Virus record (IMG/VR): IMGVR_UViG_2651869725_000017 | Length of the DNA stretch: 18,249 nucleotides | Direction: 5' to 3' (one strand) | DNA from: a virus | Taxonomy: Duplodnaviria; Heunggongvirae; Uroviricota; Caudoviricetes | Shown: one piece after another, positions 17,886 through 18,249 of the stretch | Layout of the letters: each line of letters starts with the position of its first letter | How positions within the stretch are numbered: the first letter of the stretch is position 1 | Made by a program: the position numbers and the translations under genes | The notes under the pieces: generated by a model | Told to the model about the DNA's origin: nothing | The model's database searches: none | The model's input: the letters and a program-made list of their open reading frames with translations, nothing else

Positions 17886-17898
17886 GCGAAAAAGAAAA

Positions 17899-17933
17899 AC
17901 CGCAGACACGACGTATGCAGGACGTGCTGCGGT
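17899..17933 (-). terminator. Intrinsic terminator downstream of the DinI-family gene
   Basis: Imperfect hairpin ACCGCAGACACG (17899-17910) / CGTGCTGCGGT (17923-17933). On the minus strand it is followed by TTTTTCTTTTTCG (complement of 17887-17899). Lies between the convergent tfa and dinI-like genes. Confidence 0.5.
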
Positions 17934-18000
17934 TGGCTGGTGAACTTTCGATAGTGCGAGTATTGAATGATTTCCAGACGTTACCGATTTTACGTGTTAA

Positions 18001-18249
18001 TTAGTGAACAAACCACTCGTCAGCAGATTCCCAGGTATCTTTCAGAGTCTCCTGAACAAAAGTTTTTGCAGAATCCTTATCTGCGGTGCGTGTAACAGAA
18101 AGGCCATCGTTGCTGGTGGCTTTTACGATCACCTCTACATCGTCATAACGTTTACTGATGCGTCGGGTTAATTCTTCCTTTAACGCATCCACAGCACCGG
18201 TTGGCATTTTAGTCATTTTTTCTTTGGCTATGCAGATTTCAATACGCAT
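18001..18249 (-). CDS. dinI: DinI-family protein (DNA-damage-inducible protein I-like, RecA modulator)
   Basis: 82-aa minus-strand ORF. C-terminus ...[16 protein letters not shown] and N-terminus MRIEI.IAK match my recollection of E. coli DinI. Start codon is the last triplet of the window, so promoter and any LexA box are outside it. Confidence 0.85.

Follow-up and report, generated by a model that had tools for sequence, protein, structure and literature searches.

Why would a temperate tailed phage carry a gene of the DinI family directly behind its tail genes, and what would the product of that gene do there? This question is raised by the last part (positions 17889-18249) of an 18,249-nucleotide stretch of Caudoviricetes DNA, IMG/VR virus record IMGVR_UViG_2651869725_000017, which we refer to in full as the window. 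An earlier interpretation made from the letters alone (hereafter, the sequence-only reading) had proposed that this DinI-like gene may let the prophage tune the SOS response of its host, and hence its own induction. Our data show that the gene is part of a compact unit comprising a two-box promoter, an 82-aa DinI paralogue, a 65-nt 3' untranslated region (3' UTR), and an intrinsic terminator. We consider it probable that this unit is a LexA-repressed accessory cassette of a temperate, SfV/SfIV-like, dusA-integrating Escherichia coli prophage, and that it acts through the RecA filament by the mechanism proposed below.

The DinI-like coding sequence is complete and occupies positions 18001..18249 on the minus strand. 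It encodes 82 aa, with its ATG (18247-18249) forming the final 3 bases of the window and its TAA stop at 18001-18003, and it was recognized in the list of open reading frames as well as through Pfam, Protein Data Bank (PDB), PHROG, and RefSeq matches. More specifically, residues 16-80 matched the whole of the Pfam DinI profile (PF06183, positions 1-63 of 63; 70.9 bits, cut-off 24.2, E = 1.1e-19), and the protein covered, at E = 5.7e-31, columns 71-149 of the 151 columns of PHROG 189 ("RecA filament binding protein DinI"). In addition, the comparison of E. coli DinI (1GHH/7YWA) with the phage protein aligned residues 1-81 on 1-79 (E = 3.7e-13), with 38 of 77 positions identical (49%), i.e., essentially over the full length. 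The assignment to the DinI family made in the sequence-only reading was thus borne out by each of these formal searches.

The relationship is nonetheless one of paralogy. The NCBIfam equivalog model for DinI, NF007893, scored the phage protein at 73 bits, below its cut-off of 111 bits, and it is for this reason that RefSeq names the identical protein of E. coli MS1679 (WP_001217553.1) "DinI-like family protein" and not DinI. The gene is located between the phage tail fibre assembly gene tfa and a phage integrase gene (int) beside dusA, and not at the chromosomal dinI site of the host, which lies between yceP and pyrC. The two proteins share the Pfam family, a similar length (82 vs 81 aa), and the C-terminal acidic and aromatic helix TWESADxWF, and both genes have a LexA-box promoter; the phage copy differs in having two perfect CTGT-N8-ACAG boxes and 2-residue insertions or deletions (indels) in loop regions. 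Judged from these alignments and from its location, the phage protein is a DinI paralogue, not host DinI proper.

The sequence-only reading placed the promoter, and any LexA box, beyond the window edge. We read this upstream DNA from contigs that show zero mismatches to the window end. An exact-protein look-up with the tfa product of the window retrieved 11 contigs, and two of the four places that were read proved mismatch-free, namely our loci L011 (GCA_000690965.1; overlap with the window, 3198 nt) and L013 (overlap, 1423 nt). The region was also read in the closest complete genome, that of E. coli MS1679, which differs from the window by one mismatch in the last 2050 nt and by 189 mismatches plus 1 indel over the full length (98.96% identity); none of the complete E. 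coli genomes matched the window exactly. All of these sequences, i.e., L011, L013, the other contigs, and MS1679, share a common layout in which tfa faces dinI, and dinI is followed upstream by a tyrosine integrase gene on the same strand and then by dusA. The spacer between int and dinI measures 61 bp and is the same in the contigs and in MS1679.

On the dinI strand, this region reads TTGACA (-65..-60), CTGTTTATCCATACAG, T, TAAAAA, TAATA, CTGTATACAAACACAG, TATAGAGGGACTTTT, and ATG. A promoter scanner called TTGACA-18-AAAAAT (10/12), and the alternative with a 17-nt spacer gives TAAAAA as the -10 element. Two perfect CTGT-N8-ACAG sites occur at -59 and -31 from the ATG, where 0.15 would be expected per 14 kb, and the ~38.5-kb MS1679 prophage contains no others. 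The palindromic LexA consensus 20-mer is TACTGTATATATATACAGTA. Measured against it, the first box, CACTGTTTATCCATACAGTT (-61..-42), agrees at 15/20 positions and fills the spacer between the -35 and -10 elements, and the second, TACTGTATACAAACACAGTA (-33..-14), agrees at 17/20 and covers the predicted start site; a GAGGG Shine-Dalgarno sequence follows. Read from the DNA, this placement of one box in the spacer and one on the start site is the classic geometry of an SOS promoter. The boxes predict that the dinI promoter is LexA-repressed, and we infer that LexA would occupy both of them. As had been anticipated, then, a sigma-70-like promoter with LexA boxes (two of them) lies directly upstream of the gene.

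The same spacer holds a further detail: the TGA stop codon of the integrase gene falls inside the -35 hexamer TTGACA (L002 8112-8117), and int and dinI are co-oriented. Since no terminator separates the two genes, read-through from int would be expected to end at the dinI hairpin as well.

This hairpin lies on the other side of the gene. A terminator stem-loop (17900..17932, minus strand) was obtained in both the minimum free energy (MFE) and the centroid fold, with a folding energy (dG) of -17.8 kcal/mol. Its G+C-rich stem (CCGCAG.../...CUGCGG) has one bulge, and directly 3' of it stands the U-tract UUUUUCUUUUU (17889..17899, minus strand, read from 17899 to 17889), with 6 U among the first 7 nt past the stem, which ends 4 nt from the tfa stop codon. 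The 3' untranslated spacer between the dinI stop and the hairpin (17933..18000, minus strand; ~65 nt) is conserved with the cassette in an alignment of seven loci and is too short to hold a second gene. On the plus strand, the tail of the same hairpin is merely UUGGCUGG, and the terminator is therefore essentially unidirectional, i.e., good for dinI and poor for tfa. We predict that positions 17889-17899 mark the 3' end of dinI transcripts, and of int read-through transcripts too.

A consensus terminator scanner made no call within 17300-18249, because its rules demand a loop of 3-8 nt and no bulge; this hairpin has a loop longer than 8 nt and a bulged stem. Furthermore, the whole 126-nt region is not unusually stable (z = -1.55). 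Stability alone is therefore no proof of the hairpin, and its support comes from conservation and covariation. Indeed, a hairpin at the same place is retained in 24 of the 28 distinct downstream variants of related loci, and double-sided compensatory changes were found at no fewer than 4 stem positions (A-U to G-C in 4 variants, C-G to U-A in 3, and G-C to C-G in 1), with the stem partners taken from the MFE fold of each individual sequence. With RNAalifold, the hairpin was missed in the 7 loci and 0 compensatory pairs were counted, because indels in the loop and bulge shifted its 3' arm out of alignment; the same happened when 16 hairpin variants were aligned with MAFFT. An Rfam search of the cassette and its flanks (E <= 1) gave no match, so that no known small RNA was found in the conserved 3' UTR. 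The fold, the U-rich tail, the conservation, and the covariation together uphold the earlier proposal that the gene has its own hairpin and T-run terminator facing tfa.

The U-tract is less constant than the stem, from which it follows that the cassette meets its neighbour immediately on the 3' side of the hairpin. The context found most often, that of phage SKA5 (L006 and about 27 IMG/VR loci), has GGCUUCCAAC after the stem instead of a U-run, and yet compensatory changes still preserve the stem. Termination may be poor in these copies; otherwise the hairpin would have an additional role, for example in protecting the 3' end or as a recombination junction.

With the aim of describing how widely this unit occurs, we compared the last 950 nt of the window with 50,697 phage records by megablast and found matches in 181 of them. 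Among the best matches listed, homology begins at ~17894-17912, that is, at the terminator, with the exception of phage mEp460, in which it begins at 17823. The records listed are annotated as DinI or DinI-like throughout, apart from two that are unannotated. In seven loci that we examined, the conserved block starts with the -35 hexamer and stops with the hairpin, with no relationship between the flanking sequences. The block is 92-97% identical in mEp460, cdtI, and Shiga toxin (Stx) phages. Downstream of it lie a lambda-type side tail fibre gene (mEp460), nleC (an Stx2a phage), cdtABC (phage cdtI), or a DNA invertase gene (SKA5), and upstream of it an integrase gene, the att site, the end of the phage, or a small divergent open reading frame. 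Identical or near-identical cassettes are thus carried by mEp460, cdtI, 2H10, SKA5, Lys8385Vzw, and many Stx1 and Stx2 phages; in mEp460 and SKA5 the protein is identical, and in mEp460 the promoter is annotated. Only the neighbours of the cassette set these phages apart from the window, in which its partner is an SfV/Mu-like contractile-tail module.

The IMG/VR database provided a second set, consisting of 80 loci that encode a protein at least 99% identical to that of the window. Both LexA boxes stand in register in 51 of the 56 loci with enough upstream DNA. Upstream of the cassette, mostly the same integrase gene was found, and downstream, at least 20 sequence classes. Among complete E. 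coli genomes, 3174 of 5426 contain a match to the cassette, 1408 of them at a coverage of at least 80%, with up to 8 places per genome.

Most of the coding variants differ from the window copy by 7-12 synonymous and 0-1 non-synonymous changes. The ratio of non-synonymous to synonymous polymorphism (pN/pS) does not exceed 0.12 across 21 other variants of the coding sequence; the selection of the IMG/VR set by protein identity biases this ratio, and the phage loci selected by nucleotide identity (L003-L007) give 0.02-0.12. On these counts, dinI is under purifying selection.

A comparison with the closest phages shows what else can occupy the same position. The structural module of Shigella phage SfIV is 97.8% identical to that of the window, but gtrA-gtrB-gtrIV and an insertion sequence element are found in the slot that separates its tfa and int genes. 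More specifically, this slot (17570-24421 in SfIV) contains a second, inverted tfa, ISEhe3, and the gtr serotype-conversion genes, the latter on the int strand, as is dinI here. Related Shigella phages carry O-antigen gtr genes at this position, which is a general cargo site and an established lysogenic-conversion slot of this phage group.

Phage "morons" are a concept of Hendrix and Juhala. The cassette resembles them in having an autonomous promoter and terminator, in being inserted at a module boundary, in its patchy presence, and in a G+C content below that of the core structural genes. It is unlike them in two respects: its compositional contrast with tfa and the C-terminus of the fibre is small, and in close relatives it mostly travels with the integrase gene. 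Nothing specific came out of a literature search for a description of dinI as a moron. Collectively, the block has its own promoter and terminator, is present in some relatives and absent from others, and recurs in unrelated contexts; as far as these sequences tell, the stretch from the -35 hexamer to the hairpin is a mobile, self-contained accessory cassette of the moron kind.

What might the cassette do? The activity of the protein that is best supported is binding to the RecA filament, as judged from the conservation of contact residues. Cryo-electron microscopy and mutagenesis of the RecA-DinI complex identified a pocket formed by L13, L21, W71, W77, and F78 that receives F203 of RecA, and an acidic patch (E24, E69, D76) that faces K232, R243, and K245 of RecA (PMC9926225). 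The equivalents in the phage protein are M15, L23, W73, W79, and F80 in the pocket and E26, D71, and E78 in the patch, so that five residues are identical and three are conservative replacements. The gene is non-structural, in keeping with the earlier view that it serves host physiology and is not a virion component.

The following mechanism is consistent with these features. In the lysogen, host LexA sitting on the spacer box and on the start-site box would keep dinI off. Upon DNA damage, RecA would be activated (RecA*) and LexA would cleave itself, and dinI would then be transcribed toward tfa until the hairpin and U-run, by analogy with Gifsy. The protein would bind in the groove of the RecA filament on single-stranded DNA by means of its hydrophobic pocket and acidic residues. 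This groove is common to LexA, UmuD, and lambda-type CI, and occupation by the phage protein could stabilize the filament and at the same time compete with weak co-protease substrates, i.e., UmuD and the CI-like repressor of the prophage itself. In the closest complete prophage (MS1679), this repressor combines a helix-turn-helix domain (HTH_3) with a Peptidase_S24 domain. The net effect may be to restrain or delay SOS mutagenesis, with prophage induction delayed or its threshold raised under transient damage; neither the direction nor the size of that effect is proven.

Several parts of this scheme have precedents. E. coli DinI stabilizes RecA filaments at moderate concentration (PMC9926225), and Lusetti 2004, as cited in PMC3121763, is given for filament stabilization by DinI. 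For the dinI homologues of the Gifsy prophages, experiments in Salmonella have established that they are LexA-regulated and damage-induced (PMC3121763, PMC8072944); their LexA box lies 19 bp from the ATG, and nalidixic acid induces them 4.5- to 23-fold (PMC8072944). The Gifsy genes and the one studied here are alike in that each encodes a prophage DinI paralogue, with a LexA box near the ATG and a sigma-70 promoter, in a discrete SOS locus. The present gene differs in being monocistronic, with a terminator 65 nt past its stop and without an antirepressor gene or irsA. It also differs in standing at the junction of tail fibre genes and int, whereas the Gifsy genes lie downstream of replication genes, in having two boxes and not one, and in accompanying a repressor that appears cleavable. 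A publication on Stx2a phages (PMC8456039) already puts forward, for the same cassette, the idea that it tunes the SOS response and induction.

A number of observations weigh against this reading. The -10 element is weak (4/6), and the promoter lies outside the window, its sequence being taken from contigs that match the last 3.2 kb exactly and not from the record of the window itself. The score below the NF007893 cut-off (73 vs 111 bits) means that the function of the protein may have diverged from that of DinI. Moreover, DinI both stabilizes filaments and inhibits the co-protease, and the sign of its effect on CI cleavage is therefore not deducible from sequence. Finally, non-polar deletions of the dinI homologues carried by Gifsy-1 and by Gifsy-3 caused no significant change in induction (PMC3121763).

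These Gifsy deletions, which left induction unaltered (PMC3121763), would be expected if the benefit of the cassette fell to the host, and this is the alternative that survives best, even though we judge it unlikely. According to it, the cassette brings about lysogenic conversion: under DNA damage, the extra DinI would restrain UmuD processing and SOS mutagenesis, or would aid survival of oxidative or antibiotic stress, and phage induction would not be meaningfully affected. Such a role would resemble that of MsgA, a DinI-family virulence protein of Salmonella, and msgA has been listed with a LexA box and as damage-induced (PMC8072944). The gtr genes that fill the cargo slot in SfIV and the nleC or cdtABC genes that adjoin the cassette in other phages point in the same direction, as does the very wide and multi-copy distribution in E. 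coli. However, these hosts already have a chromosomal dinI, and in the literature that we found no phenotype is reported for the prophage copies of E. coli. In addition, host benefit is compatible with the tuning of SOS and induction through RecA; the molecular mechanism would be the same and only the beneficiary would differ.

The opposite sign of the effect was considered as well. If stabilization of RecA* prolonged or sharpened its co-protease activity, the phage protein would speed CI cleavage and commit the prophage to induction in a positive feed-forward. The stabilization of filaments by E. coli DinI at moderate concentration fits this idea (PMC9926225), and the LexA boxes would switch the gene on just when RecA* appears. 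Nevertheless, DinI shares its groove with lambda CI (PMC9926225), which predicts competition, and induction was not reduced by the Gifsy deletions (PMC3121763); we consider such a feed-forward very improbable.

Least credible is a LexA-controlled antirepressor, or half of one, that would inactivate a non-cleavable repressor as do Tum of coliphage 186 (likewise a LexA-controlled phage gene product with a DinI-like domain) and the Gifsy dinI-gfoA/gftA operons: linkage or fusion of DinI homologues to antirepressors under LexA control is a repeated finding (PMC3121763), and the match to columns 71-149 of the 151-column PHROG 189 profile implies longer, Tum-like members of the family, but the phage protein is the DinI half only and lacks the ~70-aa N-terminal antirepressor half of Tum, the antirepressor activity in PSP3 resides in that other half (PMC3121763), no downstream antirepressor reading frame fits into the 65 nt between stop and terminator, and an S24 autocleavage domain is present in the CI-like repressor encoded by the closest complete prophage, so that a Tum- or Gifsy-type antirepressor was rejected.

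The reading in which a LexA-repressed cassette modulates RecA* contains little that is new in principle. RefSeq contains the protein, and annotations of the cassette exist in dozens of phage genomes, with a promoter feature in mEp460, so that the finding is already known; both the LexA control of prophage dinI and the hypothesis that it limits induction are in print. The cassette is real but ordinary, being present in over half of complete E. coli genomes. Its practical value is that of a compact and very widespread SOS-responsive unit that adjoins toxin and effector cargo (stx phages, cdtABC, nleC), and it may bear on the RecA*-dependent cleavage of repressors and hence on the induction of toxin phages by antibiotics.

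Outside the window, the MS1679 prophage encodes a 108-aa protein annotated as "LexA family transcriptional regulator" (WP_000210154.1; L008 9734-10060, minus strand, corresponding to NZ_CP097719.1 4722733-4723059), the gene of which sits between RusA and Dam-like methylase genes. It consists of a LexA DNA-binding domain only (PF01726, E = 2.9e-19), without an S24 cleavage domain, and aligns to residues 2-70 of E. coli LexA, with the recognition helix NAAVEHLRAL vs NAAEEHLKAL. Such a protein was found in 61 phage records, among them the dinI-bearing SKA5 and 2H10, Stx2c phages, SfV (orf42, "unknown"), and SfII; SfV and SfII encode it but have no dinI. Judging from its domain content, the 108-aa protein could be an uncleavable mimic of LexA. 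Literature searches for a characterized "truncated LexA" of prophages found nothing specific.

If it were such a mimic, the dinI cassette might be one half of an SOS timer run by the phage, an idea that we regard as highly doubtful. LexA would silence dinI in the lysogen, and damage would turn dinI on, its product occupying RecA*. Once the early-right operon was expressed, the mimic would shut off dinI and the SOS regulon of the host again, without regard to RecA*. Were this true, it would amount to a phage-encoded override of the SOS response.

The genes that precede dinI in the window confirm its position relative to the tail module. On the plus strand, a Mu gp48/YmfQ baseplate protein gene and a gp53-like short tail fibre gene are followed by tfa (17445..17885; Pfam Caudo_TAP, E = 7e-29; stop codon at 17883-17885), which is the last gene of the late operon and belongs to the context, outside the cassette. 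The minus-strand dinI faces tfa, so the convergent placement at the end of the tail module stands as originally described.

The claim that the gene is AT-richer than the structural genes needs to be qualified. It holds against the bulk of the window (G+C content 0.434 in dinI vs 0.557 in positions 1-16818), but tfa (0.469) and the C-terminus of the fibre (0.497) are low as well. The G+C content drops near 17150, from about 0.57 to about 0.47-0.50, and not at dinI. It falls together with the end, at 17169 within the short tail fibre gene, of the homology to Shigella phages SfIV, SfII, SfI, and SfV, which runs from position 1 at 97-98% identity. The AT-rich tract is therefore, on this mosaic pattern, made up of two swapped modules and is not a signature of dinI: a host-range module consisting of the receptor-binding end of the fibre and tfa, and then the separate dinI cassette.

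The window itself probably stops where a viral contig was drawn to stop. Many IMG/VR viral contigs (L017, L019, L033, and others) start at the very base at which the window ends (match 1-246), and in end-identical contigs the prophage runs on for ~1.2 kb, through the LexA-box promoter and the integrase gene, to dusA. The coincidence of the window end with the ATG of dinI is thus probably that of a drawn boundary and not a biological end. A PADLOC search returned no defence-system match.

The differences between the window and the MS1679 prophage are clustered in 1001-7000 and 12501-14000, with 43 in 6501-7000, 21 in 5501-6000, and none counted in 9501-12500. The 1-nt indel lies at 5421, in an intergenic gap beside the major capsid gene. 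This clustering suggests patchwise recombination among SfV-like prophages.

Finally, the far end of the MS1679 prophage lies ~2.7 kb from the lexA-dinF operon of the host (zur, yjbJ, dinF, lexA; L008 21983-24871). The proximity of prophage and lexA is probably a coincidence of the chromosomal positions of dusA and lexA. In that 32-kb stretch of MS1679, the only other CTGT-N8-ACAG site is the one in the lexA promoter.

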